Origin: Candidatus Heimdallarchaeum aukensis
GTDB taxonomy: Archaea > Asgardarchaeota > Heimdallarchaeia > Heimdallarchaeales > Heimdallarchaeaceae
DNA: 64,000 nucleotides
Assembly (NCBI GenBank): GCA_021513695.1
Contig: CP084166.1
Coordinates: 1,120,001-1,184,000 of the forward strand
Direction of reading: 5' to 3'
The position numbers were made by a program, and so were the translations under genes. This document shows positions 8,573 to 48,934 of this stretch, in pieces. Each line of letters opens with the position of its first letter. Within the stretch, counting starts at the first letter, position 1. The notes below the pieces were generated by a model that saw only the letters and a program-made list of their open reading frames with translations, was not told where the DNA came from and did no database searches.

Positions 8573-9349
8573 ATGTCCCAGAAAAAAACTGAATTCCTTG
8601 AACCTGTTTTATCTAATGATTTAATAGTCACATTAAACGCTGCAATTGGTGAGCGAATGCTAATTTTAGCAGGCAGCTGTACAGCTTTTTTTGATGGAAG
8701 AATAAAGTCTACTTTAGAATTAGGAGAGAGGATATTAATAATTAAAAAAGACCTATCCATATTAATGCATGGAGTTTCAGGGGTAAAACCTTTAAATTGG
8801 CAAAAGCCAAATCAAGGGCCAATTTCATTTCTAAAAGAGAAAAATGAATTAGTTATGTACACAAAAAGGAAAAAAACAGAAGAAGAGTTATGGATTAGAT
8901 TTCGTTCTATTGATTTTGTTATTTTATGGTCAGGTAGCGATTTTTCTTCTTTAGAGATTTATGGGGATGAATCTGACCTTGTTCAATATCTCGTAAAACA
9001 TCCCTCAATAATTGAAAAGGATTTGCAAATTCTTTCTACAGAATACCCAACTGATGTAGGATTTGTTGACATTAAAGCTCTTGATAGCAAGAAAAGACTG
9101 ATTATTATTGAAGTAAAAAAACGTAACGCTACACCTTCAGATGCTTTTCAGTTAAAAAGATATAAGGACTATTTTGAAAATATCGAAAATAAAAAAATTA
9201 GAGCTATACTTGTTGCTCCTTCTTTCCCTGACAAAGTAAAAAAATATTTAGAGATAAATAACTTAGAATTTCAAGAAGTAGATTGGAAAAACATCTTTCC
9301 CACTATTTCTAGAGAAAAAAATATGAAAATTGATGATTTCTTTTTCTGA
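8573..9349 (+). CDS. nucS: endonuclease NucS/EndoMS (mismatch-specific RecB-like nuclease)
   Basis: Collinear similarity to archaeal NucS: GERILIIKKDLSILMHG, NWQKPNQG, GFVDIKALD...IIIEVKKRNA...QLKRYKDYF, AILVAPSF (RecB-like D-E-K nuclease core). Confidence 0.85.
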   Translation: MSQKKTEFLEPVLSNDLIVTLNAAIGERMLILAGSCTAFFDGRIKSTLELGERILIIKKDLSILMHGVSGVKPLNWQKPNQGPISFLKEKNELVMYTKRKKTEEELWIRFRSIDFVILWSGSDFSSLEIYGDESDLVQYLVKHPSIIEKDLQILSTEYPTDVGFVDIKALDSKKRLIIIEVKKRNATPSDAFQLKRYKDYFENIENKKIRAILVAPSFPDKVKKYLEINNLEFQEVDWKNIFPTISREKNMKIDDFFF

Positions 9350-10845
9350 AATTATGAAGTTATAGAAAAAGTTGAAAAAAGAAGAAAGAAAGGGAGAGGA
9401 AAGAAAGCGGAGGAGAGAGGAAAGGAGGGAAAATGAGGAGTTTAAATAGTGAAAAAAAGTAAAAATGAATGAATGAGAAAATGAGGAAAAAGGTGTGGCG
9501 AACTGAGGAAATATGGGGGAAAGAATCGATCACTCTAAAGCAGTTGGCACACCAGGTAAAAAACTTGTATAATCAAGCAAATTACATTATTAAGTATCAG
9601 TTAAGAAAAAGTAAATATTTCACGAGAGAGTTCGAACTGATGAATATTTTAAGGTATCACCCGACCTACACAGCACTACCTGGTCATACGGCACAACAGA
9701 CGATAAAGTTTCTATGTTTAGCGTGGAAAGGGTATTTTAGGTCTTTAGAAGAATGCAAAAAAGAACCAGAAAAGTTTAATGGTAAACCCCGTCCTCCAAA
9801 ATAGAAGAAGAAAGATGGACTTGCTATAATCTATTTTACTAACTCTCAAGTGAAAATTAAAGAAGAAAAAGAGCAAGAAAAAGAAAAATTTTTTATCTCT
9901 TTCCCTAAACGTGTAGGACTAAAGATAGTTACAAGACTGTGTCCTTCAACGAAAGTGAAGTTTGCCCGTCTTATACCTATGGGAACGAAATTTAAATTAG
10001 AGATAGTTTACGAGAAAGAGATAGAAGAACGAAAAAAACGACATGCAGAAAGAGTTCTAGCTCTTGATCTGGGAGTGAATAACCTTGTAGGCGGGTTAAC
10101 CACTATTCCTGGTGAAAAAGGTTTTCTGATAAATGGTAGACCCATTAAAGCTGTTAATCAGTGGTTTAATAAACGTAGGGCAAAATTACAGTCAATCTAT
10201 GACAAGCAAGGATTAAACACCTGGGGAAGAAAAATGCTTACTCTCCAGTTAGAACGAATGTGTAAAATAGCTGACTATTTCCATAAAGCAAGTAGGAAGA
10301 TAATAGACTACTGTTTAGAAAAAAACATTGATACGATAGTTATAGGTTACAACCCCAGATGGAAACAGAAAGTGAATATGGGAAAGAAAAATAACCAAAC
10401 CTTTGTTTTTATCCCCTTTAAATCCCTCATTGATAAAATCACTTACAAAGCAGAAGAAAAAGGGATAAAAGTTATTCCTACCGAAGAGTCCTACACCTCT
10501 GTCTGCAGTTTCTTAGATAATGAAGAGATAGCTTTTCACCCCCATTATGCTGGCAAAAGAACTCACCGTGGACTGTTCATCAGTACCAGAGGATTAAAAA
10601 TTAATGCTGATATCAACTCTGCAGGTAATATCGGTCGCAAAGTATTCCCCACGTTATTCTCTGTTATGTTTAACTACGGGATAGTCTGGGCTGCAGTGGT
10701 TCACCCCGTCCGTTGGAAAATAAGTTAGCAAGTTAAGTTAGTCCAGCTCTTATGCTGTTCTTTCTCTTTCTTTTTTTCCACCGACTAAACTTCCTCCTCC
10801 TTCCGATTTTTAATCTAAATCGGAATTTAGGAAAAAGTAAACCAT
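9350..10845 (+). mobile_element. IS200/IS605-family (IS1341-like) element carrying only tnpB; copy 2 (complete)
   Basis: TnpB N- and C-terminal regions are present. GA-rich leader at 9380..9460. The 3' ~120 nt beyond the tnpB stop are conserved with copy 1, including a subterminal hairpin at 10803..10823. Homology ends at 10845. No tnpA. The left boundary is not determinable from one copy. Confidence 0.7.
9469..10728 (+). pseudogene. tnpB: tnpB interrupted by a single in-frame TAG (9802..9804); N-part 9469..9804 and RuvC part 9850..10728 are in the same frame
   Basis: Both ORFs are in frame 1 and separated only by a TAG. The N-part has the typical TnpB helical N-terminus ending GKPRPPK. The C-part has RuvC-I D (LALDLGVNN), RuvC-II E (TEESYTS) and RuvC-III D (ADINSAGNI). 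The zinc-finger cysteines are degenerate. Confidence 0.75.
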
Positions 10846-10860
10846 GATTTTTTTTAAGAA

Positions 10861-27751: not shown

Positions 27752-29266
27752 ATGCTTTATAAACTATTAAATTTTTTTGATTTTTTTCGACTTTTTTCTT
27801 TTTTTCTTTCTCTCATTCTTTTTCCTTATCAAAAAATAAATAAGAGTAAACTTACATTTTATATTATTATGCTTATAAAAACTGGTATTAATGAGCTTGA
27901 CCAGATGATTGATGGTGGTTTACGTACCCATTATTGTTATTCTATCAAGGGTTCTGCTGGTGCTGGTAAGACTGTTTTATCTATTTTTCTTGCTTGGGGT
28001 GCTCTCAATCAGGACATCCCTGTTGTTTTTATTAGTACTGAGATTGAACCTGATCGTATTATTCATTATTTTCACTCTTTTGGTCTTCCTGTTGAGGACT
28101 ACATTGACCGAGGGTTATTAGTCATTGATAAGATGTCTTTGAAGTCTTCTGGTGAGGAGATTATCCAGACTAACAGTTTTGATTTATCAGGTATTATTTT
28201 ACGTGTTACTAAGAAGATTGAGCGTATTCGAGCTAAGTTGGTTATTTTTGATTCTCTTTCTGCTTTTATTGCTGACTTTGAGTATAAAGACACTGCCCGT
28301 AGTAAGTATATTGATTTTATTAAGCGCATTACTAGTTTAGATACTTCTTTAATTATTACTATTGAGTGTGACCCTATTACTAGCAGTTCTCAGATTGACT
28401 ATTTAGTTGACGGTGTTATTGCTTTAAAGACCGAATTAATCAACAATCAGCTAATCAAGAAGATTTCTGTTCCTAAATTAAGAGAAGCCAAGCCTTTAGT
28501 TTATGAAAACCGTTATACTATTACTCAGAAAGGTTTTAGGATTTTCAAATCTGAGAGCGAGCCTTTGTTTACCGTTGATCGTTCTACTGGTATTAAGGTT
28601 TTGGACAATCTTTTAGGTGGAGGTATTGCTCGAGGTTCTGTTGTTTTAGTTGAGATCAATGGTGAGATTAATTATTTTCCTTTCTTCTTGACTCTTCTTT
28701 ACAATTATTTAACTCTAAACCATGGTGTTATCATTCATTCCAATGTTCAGATGAATGTTAATCGTATTTTGGAGGAGTTTGAGCGAGGTCAGTGTGACAT
28801 TTCTGACTACTTACGTGATGGTAATATTGTCTTTTTGGATAAGTACAATCGTTCTGTCACTGCTGTTGAAGCTAAAGAGATTCGTGATATGATTAACTTA
28901 GATGACATGTTAGCTATTACTGTTGAGATGATGCAGGCTTTTGGTTCTGACACTGAAGTTGTTGTTTTTGGTGATCTTACTGATGATGTTAACATTTTGA
29001 ATGAGCGTGATTTCTTAAAATTGTTTGCTCTTCAGTCTTACAACATTAAGGAGCATAATGCTATTTCCTTTTCTTTTATCAATTACAATGCTGTTGACAA
29101 AAAAATTCTCGCTCGTTTACGTACCACCTCTGATGTTATCATTCGTTTATCGCGTGAAAATTATTCTAACTACATTGAATGTTTGAAGAGCACTACTGGT
29201 GCTACATTTCTTGCTAAGAATATTGAATTTAAAAAAAGTTATCCTATGATTGAAATTGTTGAGTGA
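27752..29266 (+). CDS. KaiC-like tandem RecA-superfamily ATPase (N-domain with Walker A, degenerate C-domain); true start possibly at 27869 (MLIKTGINELDQ)
   Basis: GINELDQMIDGGL...IKGSAGAGKT (Walker A) in domain 1. Domain 2 (GIKVLDNLLGGGIARGSVVLVEINGE) lacks a P-loop. The first ~39 codons of the ORF are low-complexity and hydrophobic. Confidence 0.7.
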   Translation: MLYKLLNFFDFFRLFSFFLSLILFPYQKINKSKLTFYIIMLIKTGINELDQMIDGGLRTHYCYSIKGSAGAGKTVLSIFLAWGALNQDIPVVFISTEIEPDRIIHYFHSFGLPVEDYIDRGLLVIDKMSLKSSGEEIIQTNSFDLSGIILRVTKKIERIRAKLVIFDSLSAFIADFEYKDTARSKYIDFIKRITSLDTSLIITIECDPITSSSQIDYLVDGVIALKTELINNQLIKKISVPKLREAKPLVYENRYTITQKGFRIFKSESEPLFTVDRSTGIKVLDNLLGGGIARGSVVLVEINGEINYFPFFLTLLYNYLTLNHGVIIHSNVQMNVNRILEEFERGQCDISDYLRDGNIVFLDKYNRSVTAVEAKEIRDMINLDDMLAITVEMMQAFGSDTEVVVFGDLTDDVNILNERDFLKLFALQSYNIKEHNAISFSFINYNAVDKKILARLRTTSDVIIRLSRENYSNYIECLKSTTGATFLAKNIEFKKSYPMIEIVE

Positions 29267-29275
29267 GGAAGTATT

Positions 29276-29524
29276 ATGCACAAGATTTTATACTTCAAGA
29301 GCAAAACTTGTAACTGGTGTCCTTTTGTCGAATCGATTTTAAAGAAGATTGTTTCTGAAAAATCTACTTTAGAGTTAGAAGTTATTGATATTGAAGAAAA
29401 TTATGAAATCGCTGAAAAGTATAATATTATCGCTGTTCCTACTATTATTCTTCCTAACTCTACTAAAATTGTTGGTGCTACCGATGAAACTTTTCTACGC
29501 CAGCAGTTATCATTTTTTTTGTGA
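29276..29524 (+). CDS. thioredoxin/glutaredoxin-like small redox protein (CNWC active site)
   Basis: 82 aa with a CxxC (CNWCP) at the start of helix 1 and a cis-Pro-like AVPT motif. Confidence 0.6.
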   Translation: MHKILYFKSKTCNWCPFVESILKKIVSEKSTLELEVIDIEENYEIAEKYNIIAVPTIILPNSTKIVGATDETFLRQQLSFFL

Positions 29525-29641
29525 TTGGTGAGAACTGCTTTCTTTTTGTTCTTTTTTTTGGTAAATTGTTTTTTTCGTTCTTTAATTCTACTTTCATCTC
29601 TATAAGAAAACTCTTTAAATTCTTTTCTTTTTTGTAAATTA

Positions 29642-32266
29642 ATGACTTGGTCCTTAAATGATTCAAAGCTTATCTATGGTGTTGATCAAAACGATCTTTA
29701 TTTTTTAGATATTAATGATCAAGGTGAACTTTTACTTAAGCTTAAGGATCAATCTATTTCTTTTAATGAAATCATCAATCTTGTTAAGTCTCAGTTTAAC
29801 TCTTCTTCTCTCTCTTCTGTTCCTTCATTTACTCTTCGCATTCCTCAATTAATAACTGAACAAATTTCCAAACTTAACACTTGTTTCCAGTCTGCTATTC
29901 ATCAATATCAATATTCTGGCAATTTTCAAGGCATCTATCCTATTAAAGTTAATTCTTTGAGTTATGTTCTTGAAACTATTAAAGCGAACAGTCCTTCCTA
30001 TGCTTTTGAAGCTGGAACTGTTAATGAATTAGATGTTTTGCTTTCTCTTCTTCGTGATGATAAAACTCGTATGATAATGTGTAACGGTGTTAAAGATTCA
30101 GACTATATAGATAAGATTAGAGGAGCTCTTAACGATGGTTATTCTATTGTTATTAGTTTGGAGTCATGCTCTGAGTCTACTACCATTCTTGATTTAATAG
30201 ACCATGATTTACTTAAACTTGCTTTGAGAATCAAACCCTATCCCACTGTTAAATCTCATTGGGGAAGTTCTTCTGGTCGCGATTCTAAATTTGGTTTATC
30301 TATTCATGAATTTAAGCGCATTATTAATTTGTTAGAAAAAAGAGGAGTAAAGGATAAAGTTATTGCTATTCACGCTCATCCTGGTTCTCAGATTATTGAT
30401 ATTGATGGTTTAAGGTTCTTTGTTCTGTATCTTTCAAACAGGTATTTAGAACTTAAGCGTCTTGGTTTCACCAACCTTAACAATATAGACTTTGGTGGAG
30501 GTATACCTATTAATTATGATAATAGGTTACCCTCTGACATTTTAGATAATTATGTTAAAACGCTTGTATTAACTCTAAAAGAGACTATCACCGATTCTGA
30601 CGTTCAACCTAATATTTGGATTGAAGCAGGAAGGTTTCTTACTGCTCCCTCTTCCTTAATTATTGTTGAAACTATTGCTCTTTACTCTATTTTCCCCTCT
30701 GAAGAGAGTTTAAATGACCATAAGGCTATGATTAGCTCAATGCTTGAAAAAATCACTCATCCTTCTTCGATACTTAATTTATTTTCTCATTGGACTGAAT
30801 TACAATCTCCTACAATCGACTCAAATGTTAACGAAATCTTGAAGACTGAAATTTTGATGAAACACTTAAAATTAGCTATCAGAGAAAAAATGATGAATTT
30901 TGATGATGAGCAAAAGTTCAACAGGATTTTTGATTTAGATTTGGATGAGATATTCTATGAGATTTATTCCCCTGAACATATCTTAATCGGTAATTTCAGT
31001 GTTTTCAATACTATTATTGATTGGTTACTTGTTGGTCAATATTTTCCTATTCTTCCTATAGACAATCTTGATCATCAACCTGTTTCTTTAGCTAGATTGG
31101 TGGATAAAACATGTGATTCTGATGGTGAGATATCTATTTACCATCCTGTCTTTAATGAAGAAAAGATTTTGTATACCAAGGATGGTTTTCCATTAACAGT
31201 CAAAGACAAGAAATTTAATCTCATGGGCTTTCCTATTGGTTGTTTGCCTACTAATTTCCCATATTATTTAGTTATTGCTTTAACAGGTGCCTACCAAGAT
31301 AACATTAAGATGCATCACAATCTAATTGAGCCATTAAGTAGTATTATTATCAAGCATGAGAATGGGCAGTGGACTATTACTAGCAGTTCTCAGATTGACT
31401 ATTTAGTTGACGGTGTTATTGCTTTAAAGACCGAATTAATCAACAATCAGCTAATCAAGAAGATTTCTGTTCCTAAATTAAGAGAAGCCAAGCCTTTAGT
31501 TTATGAAAACCGTTATACTATTACTCAGAAAGGTTTTAGGATTTTCAAATCTGAGAGCGAGCCTTTGTTTACCGTTGATCGTTCTACTGGTATTAAGGTT
31601 TTGGACAATCTTTTAGGTGGAGGTATTGCTCGAGGTTCTGTTGTTTTAGTTGAGATCAATGGTGAGATTAATTATTTTCCTTTCTTCTTGACTCTTCTTT
31701 ACAATTATTTAACTCTAAACCATGGTGTTATCATTCATTCCAATGTTCAGATGAATGTTAATCGTATTTTGGAGGAGTTTGAGCGAGGTCAGTGTGACAT
31801 TTCTGACTACTTACGTGATGGTAATATTGTCTTTTTGGATAAGTACAATCGTTCTGTCACTGCTGTTGAAGCTAAAGAGATTCGTGATATGATTAACTTA
31901 GATGACATGTTAGCTATTACTGTTGAGATGATGCAGGCTTTTGGTTCTGACACTGAAGTTGTTGTTTTTGGTGATCTTACTGATGATGTTAACATTTTGA
32001 ATGAGCGTGATTTCTTAAAATTGTTTGCTCTTCAGTCTTACAACATTAAGGAGCATAATGCTATTTCCTTTTCTTTTATCAATTACAATGCTGTTGACAA
32101 AAAAATTCTCGCTCGTTTACGTACCACCTCTGATGTTATCATTCGTTTATCGCGTGAAAATTATTCTAACTACATTGAATGTTTGAAGAGCACTACTGGT
32201 GCTACATTTCTTGCTAAGAATATTGAATTTAAAAAAAGTTATCCTATGATTGAAATTGTTGAGTGA
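29642..32266 (+). CDS. chimeric ORF: biosynthetic arginine decarboxylase (SpeA-like) residues 1..~579 fused in frame to the C-terminal half of the KaiC-like ATPase; a product of the tandem duplication
   Basis: The N-part is identical to 32644..34375 (SpeA). The C-part is identical to 28374..29266 (KaiC-like C-domain). The junction is at 31373/31374. Confidence 0.6.
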   Translation: MTWSLNDSKLIYGVDQNDLYFLDINDQGELLLKLKDQSISFNEIINLVKSQFNSSSLSSVPSFTLRIPQLITEQISKLNTCFQSAIHQYQYSGNFQGIYPIKVNSLSYVLETIKANSPSYAFEAGTVNELDVLLSLLRDDKTRMIMCNGVKDSDYIDKIRGALNDGYSIVISLESCSESTTILDLIDHDLLKLALRIKPYPTVKSHWGSSSGRDSKFGLSIHEFKRIINLLEKRGVKDKVIAIHAHPGSQIIDIDGLRFFVLYLSNRYLELKRLGFTNLNNIDFGGGIPINYDNRLPSDILDNYVKTLVLTLKETITDSDVQPNIWIEAGRFLTAPSSLIIVETIALYSIFPSEESLNDHKAMISSMLEKITHPSSILNLFSHWTELQSPTIDSNVNEILKTEILMKHLKLAIREKMMNFDDEQKFNRIFDLDLDEIFYEIYSPEHILIGNFSVFNTIIDWLLVGQYFPILPIDNLDHQPVSLARLVDKTCDSDGEISIYHPVFNEEKILYTKDGFPLTVKDKKFNLMGFPIGCLPTNFPYYLVIALTGAYQDNIKMHHNLIEPLSSIIIKHENGQWTITSSSQIDYLVDGVIALKTELINNQLIKKISVPKLREAKPLVYENRYTITQKGFRIFKSESEPLFTVDRSTGIKVLDNLLGGGIARGSVVLVEINGEINYFPFFLTLLYNYLTLNHGVIIHSNVQMNVNRILEEFERGQCDISDYLRDGNIVFLDKYNRSVTAVEAKEIRDMINLDDMLAITVEMMQAFGSDTEVVVFGDLTDDVNILNERDFLKLFALQSYNIKEHNAISFSFINYNAVDKKILARLRTTSDVIIRLSRENYSNYIECLKSTTGATFLAKNIEFKKSYPMIEIVE

Positions 32267-32275
32267 GGAAGTATT

Positions 32276-32524
32276 ATGCACAAGATTTTATACTTCAAGA
32301 GCAAAACTTGTAACTGGTGTCCTTTTGTCGAATCGATTTTAAAGAAGATTGTTTCTGAAAAATCTACTTTAGAGTTAGAAGTTATTGATATTGAAGAAAA
32401 TTATGAAATCGCTGAAAAGTATAATATTATCGCTGTTCCTACTATTATTCTTCCTAACTCTACTAAAATTGTTGGTGCTACCGATGAAACTTTTCTACGC
32501 CAGCAGTTATCATTTTTTTTGTGA
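32276..32524 (+). CDS. thioredoxin-like protein, duplicate copy
   Basis: Identical to 29276..29524. Confidence 0.6.
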   Translation: MHKILYFKSKTCNWCPFVESILKKIVSEKSTLELEVIDIEENYEIAEKYNIIAVPTIILPNSTKIVGATDETFLRQQLSFFL

Positions 32525-32643
32525 TTGGTGAGAACTGCTTTCTTTTTTTTGTTCTTTTTTTGGTAAATTGTTTTTTTCGTTCTTTAATTCTACTTTCATC
32601 TCTATAAGAAAACTCTTTAAATTCTTTTCTTTTTTGTAAATTA

Positions 32644-34401
32644 ATGACTTGGTCCTTAAATGATTCAAAGCTTATCTATGGTGTTGATCAAAACGATCTT
32701 TATTTTTTAGATATTAATGATCAAGGTGAACTTTTACTTAAGCTTAAGGATCAATCTATTTCTTTTAATGAAATCATCAATCTTGTTAAGTCTCAGTTTA
32801 ACTCTTCTTCTCTCTCTTCTGTTCCTTCATTTACTCTTCGCATTCCTCAATTAATAACTGAACAAATTTCCAAACTTAACACTTGTTTCCAGTCTGCTAT
32901 TCATCAATATCAATATTCTGGCAATTTTCAAGGCATCTATCCTATTAAAGTTAATTCTTTGAGTTATGTTCTTGAAACTATTAAAGCGAACAGTCCTTCC
33001 TATGCTTTTGAAGCTGGAACTGTTAATGAATTAGATGTTTTGCTTTCTCTTCTTCGTGATGATAAAACTCGTATGATAATGTGTAACGGTGTTAAAGATT
33101 CAGACTATATAGATAAGATTAGAGGAGCTCTTAACGATGGTTATTCTATTGTTATTAGTTTGGAGTCATGCTCTGAGTCTACTACCATTCTTGATTTAAT
33201 AGACCATGATTTACTTAAACTTGCTTTGAGAATCAAACCCTATCCCACTGTTAAATCTCATTGGGGAAGTTCTTCTGGTCGCGATTCTAAATTTGGTTTA
33301 TCTATTCATGAATTTAAGCGCATTATTAATTTGTTAGAAAAAAGAGGAGTAAAGGATAAAGTTATTGCTATTCACGCTCATCCTGGTTCTCAGATTATTG
33401 ATATTGATGGTTTAAGGTTCTTTGTTCTGTATCTTTCAAACAGGTATTTAGAACTTAAGCGTCTTGGTTTCACCAACCTTAACAATATAGACTTTGGTGG
33501 AGGTATACCTATTAATTATGATAATAGGTTACCCTCTGACATTTTAGATAATTATGTTAAAACGCTTGTATTAACTCTAAAAGAGACTATCACCGATTCT
33601 GACGTTCAACCTAATATTTGGATTGAAGCAGGAAGGTTTCTTACTGCTCCCTCTTCCTTAATTATTGTTGAAACTATTGCTCTTTACTCTATTTTCCCCT
33701 CTGAAGAGAGTTTAAATGACCATAAGGCTATGATTAGCTCAATGCTTGAAAAAATCACTCATCCTTCTTCGATACTTAATTTATTTTCTCATTGGACTGA
33801 ATTACAATCTCCTACAATCGACTCAAATGTTAACGAAATCTTGAAGACTGAAATTTTGATGAAACACTTAAAATTAGCTATCAGAGAAAAAATGATGAAT
33901 TTTGATGATGAGCAAAAGTTCAACAGGATTTTTGATTTAGATTTGGATGAGATATTCTATGAGATTTATTCCCCTGAACATATCTTAATCGGTAATTTCA
34001 GTGTTTTCAATACTATTATTGATTGGTTACTTGTTGGTCAATATTTTCCTATTCTTCCTATAGACAATCTTGATCATCAACCTGTTTCTTTAGCTAGATT
34101 GGTGGATAAAACATGTGATTCTGATGGTGAGATATCTATTTACCATCCTGTCTTTAATGAAGAAAAGATTTTGTATACCAAGGATGGTTTTCCATTAACA
34201 GTCAAAGACAAGAAATTTAATCTCATGGGCTTTCCTATTGGTTGTTTGCCTACTAATTTCCCATATTATTTAGTTATTGCTTTAACAGGTGCCTACCAAG
34301 ATAACATTAAGATGCATCACAATCTAATTGAGCCATTAAGTAGTATTATTATCAAGCATGAGAATGGGCAGTGGAATGTTTTATATTATAGAGATAAATA
34401 A
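32644..34401 (+). CDS. speA: biosynthetic arginine decarboxylase (SpeA; PLP-dependent fold-III decarboxylase)
   Basis: YPIKVN, HAHPGSQI and DFGGG motifs characteristic of SpeA. About 585 aa. Confidence 0.8.
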   Translation: MTWSLNDSKLIYGVDQNDLYFLDINDQGELLLKLKDQSISFNEIINLVKSQFNSSSLSSVPSFTLRIPQLITEQISKLNTCFQSAIHQYQYSGNFQGIYPIKVNSLSYVLETIKANSPSYAFEAGTVNELDVLLSLLRDDKTRMIMCNGVKDSDYIDKIRGALNDGYSIVISLESCSESTTILDLIDHDLLKLALRIKPYPTVKSHWGSSSGRDSKFGLSIHEFKRIINLLEKRGVKDKVIAIHAHPGSQIIDIDGLRFFVLYLSNRYLELKRLGFTNLNNIDFGGGIPINYDNRLPSDILDNYVKTLVLTLKETITDSDVQPNIWIEAGRFLTAPSSLIIVETIALYSIFPSEESLNDHKAMISSMLEKITHPSSILNLFSHWTELQSPTIDSNVNEILKTEILMKHLKLAIREKMMNFDDEQKFNRIFDLDLDEIFYEIYSPEHILIGNFSVFNTIIDWLLVGQYFPILPIDNLDHQPVSLARLVDKTCDSDGEISIYHPVFNEEKILYTKDGFPLTVKDKKFNLMGFPIGCLPTNFPYYLVIALTGAYQDNIKMHHNLIEPLSSIIIKHENGQWNVLYYRDK

Positions 34402-46199: not shown

Positions 46200-46460
46200 A
46201 TGGAAAACCAAAAAGGCAAAATTCCTATATTTCAAGTTGATGCTTTCACTGATAAAGCCTTTCAAGGCAATCCTGCAGCTGTTTGTATCTTAGAAGAAAA
46301 ATACTCTTTTTCTGATTCTTTACTACAAAAAATAGCTCAAGAAATGAATCTTTCTGAAACAGCTTTTATTTACGTGAAAGATCTAGATCAAATTACTAAC
46401 CAAAGTGAGTTCAGGTTACGTTGGTTTACCCCAAATAAAGAAGTCAAAATGTGTGGACAT
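46200..46460 (+). pseudogene. phzF-family (phenazine-biosynthesis-like isomerase) gene, 5' part, interrupted by IS insertion after ...KMCGH
   Basis: IPIFQVDAFTDKAFQGNPAAVC...AFIY...RWFTP..EVKMCGH, then PhzF homology stops. It resumes at 48326 with (H)ATLASAAVLF. Confidence 0.75.
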
Positions 46461-48325
46461 GATTTACTTTTTTACGTAAAGTTTTTCACACTCTGTCTTG
46501 CAAGAGAGAAAACTAAAGGAAGTTTAATCTCTTGAACTCAACCAAGCCATACAATGCCATGAAGGGGTTGAGACAGACATCATACACGAATCGTGGGAAT
46601 CATAAAGAAGAATAGAAAGTTTTTCTTTCTTTTCTTCACTCCACGAGAGACAAAAAAGAAAGAAAGAAAGAAAGAATTACTCCTATAATAGAGAAGGAGT
46701 TACTTTCCTTTTTGTCTACTGGGACTGCAACCAATGGCTGAGCCCTCGGCAAACAGTGAAATGGGAAGAACTGAACCTTTGACCAGTGAGGTAATCAGTG
46801 ATAGTTGTTCCTCGAGGACGAAAAAGAGCACCAAGGAACTTACGAGCGATATTCATTGCCCCTGTGAGGTCAGAGTGGAAAGTGTAGTTACAGGAAGAAC
46901 AATGAACTAAACCTCTAACGGGACGGATAACTTTTCTCCCACAACGAGCACAGTAAGAAGATGTCCCTCTTTCTCCTATTGTTAATATTCGGTGAGGTTC
47001 AAAACCTCGAAGTATCAATGCTCGACGAAGAAGAGCAAGAACAAGAGAAAAGTTCCACTGATGAAGTTTCCTGCGAAACTTACGAGTACTTTTACCTTTT
47101 CCTTTCTCCTCGCGAACATGTTTAGGGTAACCTACAACGACGAAAAGGTCATACATTCGCGCATAGGTCTCTATCGTCTGCACAACCTCACTTATAAATT
47201 GGTGAATATATGCTCGTTTAACGTTTCTATATCTTCTTCGGAGGAGACTAAGAAAACGATAAACTTGATGTTTTTTACCCGACTGGTCATTTAAAGCTGC
47301 TTTCCTCTGAAGACGGGAAAGTTTGAGTTTATATCTATGATTGACTCTATTCCACTGTTTGGTATACCAAAATTTTATCTCTTTACTTGTTAATTTCTTT
47401 TTAGGGGTTAGTAACACTCCTGTAGCAGGAATGTTTATACCTAGATCTATTCCCAGCACAGCTGGGGGAAGAGAAGAAGAACTTTTTTCTTTAGTAGGAT
47501 AAAAAGAAGGAGGAGGAAGAACTCTTAGTTGGAAATACACCCACCATTCAAGTGTAGAACGTTTATATCTTAGTTCTAAACTTTTTATTCGTCCTTTCTT
47601 TAATTCCTTCTGGTGGAAAGTGCTCATCTCTAAAGGTAACCATAGTTTCTGATGATAAGGTGTGTTTCTTTTCCATGTATCTAACGAGTCTCTTATCCCC
47701 ACCCACCAACGAGTGAGAGTGTTATTCTTCTCTTTAGGTAGATGGACGAGAACGAACCTCTTTGCATTAATTAGTTGTCTTCTTGCTCTCTTTATGGGTG
47801 GACGAGTATTATTAGGTCTATACCCTTGTTCATATAACTGTACGGCTATATCTCTACACTCTTGAAATTCGTTGTGGGAACAATAAGGGAACATTTTCTT
47901 CAGATCGTGAGGGACATTCTTTCTTCTCTCTTCTTCTTTAACTTTGGAAGTAGTTAGCGTCAGTTCATCTAGTTTTCCTCTATGCACTCTTATTTTCCCT
48001 TTTTTAGTTTTAGTACATATTTTTCTTCTGTTATGATGTATAATTCTCACATATTTTTCTATTATCCTCGTATCTCTTCCCGTTATTCTCCTTAACCTTT
48101 CCTTCTTCCTCGTCGTCAATACCTCCTTCTTTATTCTCACTTTCAAGGTTTTGACGACGTCCTCCACCATCTTTCTCTTTTCTCCTTCTTTCCTCTTTTT
48201 TTGTTTCTTCTTCTCTTTTTTTTATTATACTTTTTTCCCTATAAAAACCCCTCTCCTTCCTCTCCTCTCTTCTCTTTTTTTTTTATTTTGCTGTCAACAA
48301 CTGTAAACTACGTAAAAAATAGACG
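46461..48325 (-). mobile_element. IS200/IS605-family (IS1341-like, solo tnpB) element inserted into phzF-like gene; no target duplication
   Basis: The original target reconstructs as GGACATG|CAACCC. The element is bounded by ATTTACTTTTTTACGTAAAG... at the left and ...AACTACGTAAAAAATAGACG at the right (short imperfect inverted ends around ACGT). Subterminal hairpins are at 46540..46568 (CTCAACC...GGTTGAG) and 46495..46506 (CTCTTGCAAGAG). Confidence 0.75.
46716..48170 (-). CDS. tnpB: TnpB (RNA-guided RuvC-like nuclease, IS605 OrfB family), second unrelated family with intact zinc finger
   Basis: RuvC-I LGIDLGINIPATG, zinc finger CARCGRKV...CSSCNYTFHSD, RuvC-III DLTGAMNIARK. 484 aa. Confidence 0.8.
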   Translation of the reverse strand: MVEDVVKTLKVRIKKEVLTTRKKERLRRITGRDTRIIEKYVRIIHHNRRKICTKTKKGKIRVHRGKLDELTLTTSKVKEEERRKNVPHDLKKMFPYCSHNEFQECRDIAVQLYEQGYRPNNTRPPIKRARRQLINAKRFVLVHLPKEKNNTLTRWWVGIRDSLDTWKRNTPYHQKLWLPLEMSTFHQKELKKGRIKSLELRYKRSTLEWWVYFQLRVLPPPSFYPTKEKSSSSLPPAVLGIDLGINIPATGVLLTPKKKLTSKEIKFWYTKQWNRVNHRYKLKLSRLQRKAALNDQSGKKHQVYRFLSLLRRRYRNVKRAYIHQFISEVVQTIETYARMYDLFVVVGYPKHVREEKGKGKSTRKFRRKLHQWNFSLVLALLRRALILRGFEPHRILTIGERGTSSYCARCGRKVIRPVRGLVHCSSCNYTFHSDLTGAMNIARKFLGALFRPRGTTITDYLTGQRFSSSHFTVCRGLSHWLQSQ

Positions 48326-48934
48326 CATGCAACCCTTGCTTCAGCAGCAGTCTTATTTAATGAGTTTAAGATTACAACTAACATCATTGAATTTGAAACT
48401 TTAAGTGGTTCTTTACTTGTATCAAAGAAAGATAATGATTTTTATTTGGATTTCCCCATTTCTAGTTTGTTCAAAGATGAAGAGAATTATCAAGAACTCA
48501 TTTCTGCTTTAGGAATCGAAGAAGCATTAAACATCGAATATTGTGAAACTTTAGACTATCTTATAGTTGAAGTGGAAAACGATCAAATTGTAGAAGATCT
48601 AGCCCCTAATTTTCAAAGAATGTTAGACAGTCATTTACCTAAGAATGTTGGATTAGTAATTGTTACTTCTAAATCTACTTCTAACAAAGATTTTGACTTT
48701 GTTTCTCGTTGCTTTGCTCCTTGGTTTGCTATCAATGAAGACCCTGTAACTGGTTCTGCTCATACTATTTTGTATCCTTACTGGTCAAAAAGGCTAATGA
48801 AAAAAGAACTTATTGCTTACCAATGTTCTCCACGAGGAGGAATTCTTCATCTTCAACCTTCAACTTCTCCTGATAGACTTTATATAGTAGGAAAAGCAAC
48901 TGTTGTTTTACATGGTCATCTATTTCTTGATTAA
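48326..48934 (+). pseudogene. phzF-family gene, 3' part (resumes in frame 2: HATLASAAVLF...; track ORF 48446..48934 is its distal portion)
   Basis: FDFVSRCFAPWFAINEDPVTGSAHTILYPYWS...SPRGGILHL matches the PhzF C-terminal domain. Confidence 0.75.

Follow-up and report, generated by a model that had tools for sequence, protein, structure and literature searches.

Candidatus Heimdallarchaeum aukensis carries, on contig CP084166.1 (positions 1,120,001 to 1,184,000), a phzF-like gene interrupted by an element with a single tnpB-like gene; this 64,000-nucleotide stretch is referred to here as the window, and coordinates are counted from its first letter. The locus is made up as follows.

46200 to 46460, plus strand: 5' fragment of the phzF-like gene, codons 1-87 ending ...KMCGH (PF02567 positions 1-69, E=6e-28; collinear with the intact alleles on contigs L016, L017 and L018)
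46458 to 46461: CATG beside the element's right end as read on the tnpB strand, seen in the sequence
46459 to 48326, minus strand: 1,868-nt insertion, the element reading G...CAT on the tnpB strand (filled minus empty site; exact boundary ambiguous within CATG)
46716 to 48170, minus strand: tnpB-like gene, 484 aa (Pfam Cas12f1-like TNB; NCBIfam guided_TnpB; profile and structure matches)
48326 to 48934, plus strand: 3' fragment of the phzF-like gene, H87-ATLASAAV... to the stop codon (PF02567 positions 69-281, E=2e-28; aligned to intact orthologues)

A first-pass annotation of the window had proposed that a base-precise insertion splits this gene, and the protein profile agrees: similarity to PF02567 stops at position 69 in the 5' fragment and resumes at position 69 in the 3' fragment, which lies in a different reading frame. 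Removal of 1,868 nt joins the flanks into an open reading frame (ORF) of 288 codons, and the rebuilt 288-aa PhzF is 90% identical to an intact 288-aa orthologue (P0121, contig L016). The same annotation had set as a test that an intact phzF should read GGACATGCAACC across the junction, and the three uninterrupted alleles on L016, L017 and L018 do so. Across the junction they have GGACATGC(A/T)AC, in longer context ...ATGTGTGGACATGC(A/T)AC(C/G)CTTGC..., with ...ATGTGTGGACATGCAACCCTTGC... in L017 and L018 and ...GGACATGCTACGCTTGC... in L016. L017 and L018 are syntenic contigs of metagenome-assembled genomes that carry phzF-grpE-dnaK-dnaJ with no insertion, and around the junction both are identical to the joined flanks of the window. 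The empty site has exactly one CATG and the window has CATG, 1,864 nt and a second CATG, the one beside the left end being at 48326-48329. An insertion had been placed at 46461-48325; the insertion stands, and its length is 1,868 nt rather than the implied 1,865 nt. The claim of no target duplication is ambiguous over 4 nt, since CATG stands at each junction and a single time in the empty site.

The phzF-like gene, to which the element lies antisense, is simply inactivated, and in this lineage it seems to be in decay. A second, independent insertion of the same family (TnpB 92% identical) was found in the phzF orthologue of metagenome contig Ga0180301_10055326 (L020, 1294-1700), in the other orientation and at a site equivalent to about 48518 in the window (GAAGCAT|TAAACATCG). 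Its right junction is CATT, whose final T was already in the target, the window phzF having GCATTAAAC at that position. The phzF copies of L017 (119-984, GCA_054384295.1) and L018 (1-741, GCA_054381415.1) have lost 1 nt, about 60 nt downstream of where the element sits in the window. The loss is unrelated to the insertion, yields ORFs of 111 and 162 aa, and is either a pseudogene mutation or an assembly error. Because phzF is broken independently in relatives, by the L020 insertion and the L017/L018 deletion, these data suggest a dispensable gene.

A diverged TnpB in a multicopy element

The only ORF of size between the ends encodes the 484-aa TnpB-like protein on the minus strand (46716-48170), and no tnpA is present, as had been noted from the letters. 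The protein matches NCBIfam guided_TnpB at 80 bits (E=1.6e-22), below the cut-off of 100 bits; Pfam recognizes only the Cas12f1-like zinc-ribbon domain (TNB) and finds no match to OrfB_IS605. A PDB search with the single 484-aa sequence returned only zinc-finger look-alikes, while a profile of 31 sequences retrieved solved TnpB and Cas12f chains at 1e-18. The AlphaFold (AF2) model has a mean confidence (pLDDT) of 80.6 and was matched by Foldseek to Cas12f/TnpB along its full length (E=2e-14, about 480 columns). D242, E400 and D434 together with C407, C410, C424 and C427 are invariant across 31 homologues, the catalytic roles of the D/E/D residues being assigned by motif without structure superposition. 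The invariant E400 adjoins the zinc finger and is not in the canonical strand, where the corresponding position is an invariant G347; E400 may therefore supply the RuvC-II carboxylate, a placement that may resemble the 'rearranged RuvC-II' classes of PMC10691335. Comparison of the tnpB genes between copies shows a dN/dS of 0.11-0.16, the mark of purifying selection. The 484-aa protein is apparently a diverged but functional TnpB.

The insert is one of many copies of a tnpB-only element found in Heimdallarchaeaceae. In the species-representative genome of Ca. Heimdallarchaeum endolithica (CP084167) there are 12 full and 2 truncated copies, with homology of the full copies running from CATG to CATG, and a metagenome scan added 80 further loci. 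The closest relatives (82-93% identity) are annotated as Candidatus Heimdallarchaeum and Heimdallarchaeaceae, and the remoter ones (33-45% identity) come from other Heimdall- and Thorarchaeota-annotated assemblies. No other copy of the family was detected within the window by tblastn or blastn. On viral contigs, a protein-pattern scan gave no relatives and a 15-mer scan for the ends gave only chance AT-rich matches. Multicopy transposase and integrase families have been described in these genomes, without their ends or targets (Wu et al. 2022, PMC8813620); the supplementary files of that study make no mention of IS605, IS200, IS607, resolvase, OrfB or transposase.

Ends, target sites and a candidate right-end RNA

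Comparison of the copies delimits the following features at the two ends and around the tnpB-like gene.

46458 to 46488, minus strand: right-end arm of the terminal inverted repeat (...CTTTACGTAAAAAAGTAAATCATG), matching the left arm at 17/31 positions
48299 to 48329, minus strand: left-end arm of the terminal inverted repeat (CATGCGTCTATTTTTTACGTAGTTTACAG...), inverted match to the right arm
T-run motif of the window subfamily: TTTTTTACGTAA
T-run motif of the second Heimdallarchaeum subfamily: TTTTTGCG(T/A)A
T-run motif of the 43%-identity relatives: TTTTCCCCAC
48327 to 48330, minus strand: target motif and predicted target-adjacent motif (TAM), G-CAT on the tnpB strand (V-CAT at 22/22 left junctions)
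46459 to 46745, minus strand: candidate omegaRNA scaffold (fold and covariation; 5' limit uncertain; overlaps the 3' end of tnpB)
46655 to 46676: (AAAG)5.5 microsatellite (Tandem Repeats Finder, TRF), where the first RNA hairpin downstream of the tnpB stop codon has its (CUUU)n 3' arm
46439 to 46458, minus strand: predicted guide portion of the omegaRNA (GUCCACACAUUUUGACUUCU), the flank that directly follows the right end in the 3' direction (by analogy with the known TnpB/omegaRNA architecture)
48171 to 48298, minus strand: purine-rich leader with an archaeal TATA-like box (TTTTTATA, 48240-48247), a putative promoter by sequence

The ends are terminal inverted repeats of about 20-30 bp, not hairpins of the IS605 type. 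When the left arm is compared with the reverse complement of the right arm, 17/31 positions agree in the window copy and as many as 27/31 in sister subfamilies (P<=0.001, with random 31-mers from that locus as the reference). Read along the tnpB strand, the left end of every copy is flank-CATG-(5-6 nt)-two T-run motifs, and the right end reads two inverted motifs-(5-6 nt)-CAT(G/A/T)-flank. The T-run motif varies by lineage, yet it always agrees between the two ends of one element. The right terminus ...GTAAATCAT and the left terminus G(N)TT(T/C)AC... are the sequences that a circle or tandem junction would join. Hairpins had been reported at both ends by the first-pass annotation; when the last 64 nt of each end were folded as single-stranded DNA, on either strand and in two subfamilies, the result was no better than for dinucleotide shuffles (z -0.7 to +0.7), and what lies there is the inverted repeat.

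Target preference was tabulated from 22 left and 22 right junctions of 22 independent insertions, with both junctions available for 18 copies. An expected preference for sites next to CATG holds in these 22 insertions. The left junction is V-CAT-G (V being any base except T) in 21 of 22 cases, the remaining one being CATA in L009. T never precedes CAT at the left junction (0/22 vs 35% background, P about 7e-5) and C does so in 13/22 (18% background). The right end is always T-CAT, followed by G in 17/22, T in 3/22 and A in 2/22, against a G background of 11%. The avoidance of T on the left and the excess of G on the right indicate that both sides of the palindrome matter. Bases beyond V-CAT-(G) are unconserved, and the proposed TAM TTGCATG is therefore not the motif. 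Junction pairs are CATG/CATG in 13 of the 18 copies; the other five differ only at the fourth base (CATG/CATA twice, CATG/CATT twice, and CATA/CATG once, in L009). In the mismatched copies the left junction usually keeps G and the right junction carries the target's base. This pattern places strand exchange within or just after CAT and means that the tetranucleotides are not a simple duplication.

Further observations concern CATG sites within and around the copies. Five of the 5' flanks look like GAAAAAAGAANCATG, but resemblance of the 5' flanks to the right-end half-site was not significant against 428 background CATG sites (P=0.32). CATG occurs at 0.6/kb inside copies vs 1.6/kb in flanks, a depletion that is only suggestive because the copies are related. 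The two 5'-truncated copies of Ca. H. endolithica CP084167, L013 (from about 2500) and L014 (from about 2508), start precisely at internal tnpB sites, ACATG and TATG, next to unrelated flank; at the second, the internal TATG has changed (T>C) and the junction reads CATG. These starts point to breakage and joining at (C/T)ATG, and it looks as though either pseudo left ends were used or deletions occurred between CATG sites.

At the right end, 46458-46760 (303 nt) folds as RNA at -89.8 kcal/mol (z=-5.7). The consensus structure, built from 15 copies of three lineages, has compensatory changes in 12/24 pairs, and 94% of its cells are paired compared with 38-52% when the partners are slid. No Rfam family matches the candidate omegaRNA region. 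The terminal AAUCAU of the element pairs with an internal AUGAUU; both strands are switched in the 43%-identity relatives (ACUCAU/AUGAGU), and as this is one covarying position, it lends the helix modest support. The microsatellite is an expanded hairpin arm that has 2-3 units at the same place in other copies. It had been called (GAAA)5 at 46615..46638, which is instead the complementary CTTT-rich arm of the same RNA hairpin. In the known TnpB/omegaRNA architecture, on which our guide prediction is based, the guide is taken from the flank (PMC8612924; 10.1101/2023.03.14.532601), and the homology between copies stops at the start of the predicted guide (46458). Upstream of tnpB, TTTTTATAGG/TTTTTATAAG is kept in all subfamilies and in the 43%-identity relatives, and the TATA-like box may serve as the promoter. 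The leader and its equivalents in the copies L001-L012 vary in length because of AG-rich short repeats (TRF periods of 5 and 20) that surround TTTTTATA.

How the element may move

Known systems each share part of this design. Like the tnpB-only IS200/IS605 elements of the IS1341 type (e.g. ISDra2), the window element has a single tnpB, a candidate structured RNA running over its 3' end to the right end, many copies beside a short fixed motif or would-be TAM, no long duplication and no tnpA. Unlike them, it ends in 20-30-bp inverted repeats with no significant hairpins, it targets the palindrome CATG and shows preferences to either side of it, and its 484-aa protein falls below the TnpB cut-off (80 vs 100 bits) with no Pfam OrfB_IS605. 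Insertion 3' of a fixed motif (V-CAT, 22/22) is a feature of IS200/IS605 that is present, with the lack of duplication ambiguous over 4 nt; a Y1 transposase in the element or the relatives searched, subterminal hairpins and asymmetric ends are those that fail. The first-pass annotation had read an IS200/IS605 signature here. This holds in the broad sense of a tnpB-only element of the TnpB/IS200-IS605 superfamily, but filing it under the strict Y1 'peel and paste' group is unjustified because two defining end features fail and the transposase was not seen.

The junctions recall IS607, in which a core dinucleotide is common to both junctions and excision is scarless; in altered-core experiments the left junction kept the donor core and the right took the target base (10.1101/2023.11.20.567912). 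As in IS607 (C. botulinum IStron), a short core (CATG, at least AT) stands at both junctions and once in the empty site, a scarless donor joint is predicted, and four of the five mismatched copies match the altered-core outcome. The differences are that inverted repeats are present here, that the IS607 core is GG, and that no serine recombinase was detected near any copy. The eukaryotic piggyBac transposons have a palindromic 4-nt target (TTAA) at both ends, seamless excision, terminal inverted repeats with subterminal repeats and a DDD transposase in cis, and they carry no TnpB. Donor-derived 4-nt flaps of the piggyBac kind would explain both the CATG/CATA and the CATA/CATG junctions. By analogy, the element may be a TnpB/omegaRNA transposon with IS607-like or piggyBac-like junction logic. 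Among TnpBs, inverted repeats are reported only for DDE-associated ones, those associated with Y1 or serine enzymes having asymmetric ends (PMC10691335). The window element resembles these DDE-associated branches in its symmetric ends and in a TnpB 3' end within about 250 bp of the transposon end, and differs in that no DDE gene was seen here and that the published example is of the IS630 type (Altae-Tran et al. 2023, PMC10691335). That the ends are symmetric and the target is palindromic does not suit the Y1 and serine transposases that usually accompany TnpB, and points to a different mobilizing enzyme. The IS630-type family targets TA rather than CATG.

Solo TnpBs are mobilized in trans and can carry the same ends as their autonomous relatives (PMC10691335), and the surroundings of the copies were searched for a mobilizing enzyme. 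Clustering of neighbouring ORFs gave no recurrent neighbour gene among the Heimdall copies, and none of the copies encloses a DDE gene. Across about 750 kb around 98 related loci, tblastn with IS608 TnpA (Y1) and with a resolvase catalytic domain (serine recombinase) gave best E values of 0.09 and 3.7, in a search with two bacterial queries that very divergent archaeal forms could escape.

We favour, with a probability of about 0.6, reading the insert as a non-autonomous TnpB/omegaRNA (OMEGA) transposon that belongs to a clade known so far from Asgard archaea only and is moved in trans by an enzyme acting on double-stranded DNA. A transposase encoded elsewhere would bind the symmetric double-stranded ends and exchange strands inside the palindrome CATG, either by core exchange as a site-specific recombinase does (IS607 at GG) or by seamless cut-and-paste with 4-nt flaps (piggyBac at TTAA). 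The flap mechanism covers both kinds of mismatch; a serine-type core exchange or a Y1 reaction covers 4/5. Excision is predicted to regenerate a single CATG, and TnpB, with an RNA transcribed through the right end into the flank, would then cut the regenerated empty site and force the element to be copied back. The guide would be about 20 nt of flank, from 46458 down to 46439, and the target a V-CAT TAM plus that flank. The empty site, with GCAT before GTCCACAC..., would be cut, and the occupied site, with TCAT before the same sequence, would be spared. The T of the element's own T-CAT end would be fixed by base-pairing inside the RNA. That T is missing from all 22 targets, and that pairing within the RNA would fix it in the element, suggests such a one-base rule for telling self from non-self. 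A bolder version is that this Heimdallarchaeaceae family moves by a mechanism undescribed for prokaryotic TnpB elements, combining symmetric ends, an enzyme in trans, seamless movement at CATG (piggyBac-like or with a palindromic core) and discrimination of V-CAT from T-CAT by a single base; we offer it tentatively, as a possibility on the unlikely side.

Several points weigh against the favoured interpretation. No transposase was found, so the class of enzyme is putative, and the two bacterial tblastn queries could have missed divergent archaeal Y1 or serine forms. An element of the form G...CAT 3' of a short motif is equally expected from a Y1 (IS605) reaction, and TTGAT, behind which a sister family in the window inserts, is a TAM of the classical IS605 type. 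IS607 has been described as lacking inverted repeats (10.1101/2023.11.20.567912). The 5/18 mismatched junction pairs contradict a classical 4-bp duplication unless flaps or heteroduplex are involved, and the long-range RNA helix, with its single covarying position, is modestly supported.

The rival explanations share much of the same evidence. In the canonical IS200/IS605 pathway, a Y1 HUH TnpA encoded elsewhere would release a top-strand circle by cleavage 3' of V-CAT at the left and T-CAT at the right and reinsert it 3' of CAT in single-stranded DNA, with no duplication. The polarity of the junctions fits, since the element is G...CAT, the left keeps G and the right has the target's A or T in 4/5 mismatched copies and in L020; a tnpB followed by its candidate RNA up to the right end is how IS605 elements are usually laid out, the TTGAT site of the sister family agrees, and most TnpB elements lack tnpA and are mobilized in trans (PMC10691335). 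However, subterminal hairpins do not rise above shuffle level on either strand, and the ends are co-varying inverted repeats where those of Y1-associated TnpBs are asymmetric (PMC10691335). Y1 reads only the 5' motif, which leaves the G preference 3' of the insertion point (17/22 vs 11%) unexplained; L009, with CATA on the left, requires an extra mutation; and tblastn with IS608 TnpA gave no Y1 match in about 750 kb around the 98 relatives. We consider this pathway unlikely. Classical DDE cut-and-paste, with a true 4-bp CATG target-site duplication and TnpB as cargo like Fanzor in eukaryotic elements with terminal inverted repeats, would account for those repeats and their subterminal motifs, for the palindromic 4-nt site at both junctions and for its occurring only once in the empty site; there is also precedent for inverted terminal repeats among DDE-associated TnpBs (PMC10691335). 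What makes it distinctly improbable is that 5/18 tetranucleotide pairs are non-identical, always at position 4, whereas random decay would strike any of the 8 positions; moreover, the usual excision footprints would destroy the TAM-plus-guide target that TnpB needs, and no copy has a DDE gene between its ends.

Finally, phzF would still work if its transcript lost the element by splicing, either as an IStron-like group I intron or in the way of archaeal bulge-helix-bulge introns. In a read-through RNA, pairing of the inverted ends could place the exons side by side, but a search of 46300-48450 gave no group I or II intron or other Rfam family even at E<=1, and neither this search nor inspection of the end pairing found a splicing signal. 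By inspection the end helix of subfamily 2 runs unbroken (CAUG plus 13 bp) and that of the window copy is opened by a 6x6 loop; neither is the 3-nt/4-bp/3-nt bulge-helix-bulge form, and the independent breaks of phzF in relatives suggest a gene that can be lost. Splicing of either kind was rejected on the Rfam null result and the end-pairing geometry, and we hold it very improbable.

Related elements and implications

The nearest relatives outside Heimdallarchaeaceae (33-35% identity over >90% of the length) lead to another Asgard group. In Asgard TnpBs associated with aCas1, a GTTCACTCA motif follows a hypervariable stretch downstream of tnpB (PMC10691335). The 33-35% relatives carry this motif downstream of tnpB, and an ORF of about 1,420 aa, divergently oriented, lies about 265 nt upstream of such homologues at L031 (477-4739), L036 (471-4736) and 36 other metagenome loci, with several copies per assembly. 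This ORF, the neighbour of tnpB in the Thor-like relatives, has no Pfam, NCBIfam or PDB similarity and Cas1 was not detected in it. Because the motif is present, these systems are probably the Asgard 'aCas1'-TnpB transposon of PMC10691335, with Cas1 itself not detectable in the ORF. Unlike the Cas1H-Asgard-1/2 TnpB groups of that study, the window element has no conserved neighbour and no GTTCACTCA, and its homology ends at CATG; the aCas1 neighbour and the motif are likewise absent from all Heimdall copies.

The window also holds two copies of a canonical TnpB family of about 400 aa (PF01385 and PF07282 relatives), at 1-685 and 9331-10846, both on the plus strand. The window start truncates the first, whose right end lies at 682-685 (...GTAAACCAT|A); in the second, an in-frame TAG (9805-9807) splits tnpB, and the left end overlaps the last codons of the upstream gene at 8573-9349. 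No empty site for the second copy was obtained through its neighbour gene, as both contigs found carry the same insertion. The family's ends read TTGAT|G-GTTTAC-TTTTTCC ... GGAAAAAGTAAAC-CAT|(G/A), and its copies finish in ...AAAAAGTAAACCAT(G/A); their terminal 15-mer is nearly that of the phzF-inserted element. They mirror the studied element, with TTGAT|G-(G/A)TTT(A)C-TTTTTC... on the left and ...GGAAAAAGTAAACCATG on the right. The tnpB in phzF had been described as a second, unrelated one; tblastn indeed gave no protein similarity between the two families, but the window's other elements have the same end architecture, from which it seems that both TnpB families are probably served by the same enzyme.

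Elsewhere in the window, 28374-31373 and 31374-34375 form a perfect-register tandem duplication of 3,002 bp (99.87% identity) that contains KaiC-like and Orn/Arg-decarboxylase-like genes and gives rise to a fused ORF of 874 aa (29642-32266).

Taken alone, the event in phzF is an ordinary insertion-sequence knock-out of a gene that is decaying in the lineage. Through this family, an Asgard TnpB clade now has a true empty site and 22 independent insertions resolved to the base, from which an unusually short TAM (V-CAT) and a one-base rule separating self from non-self are predicted. A compact archaeal TnpB with a TAM of 3-4 nt could be of interest for genome editing.

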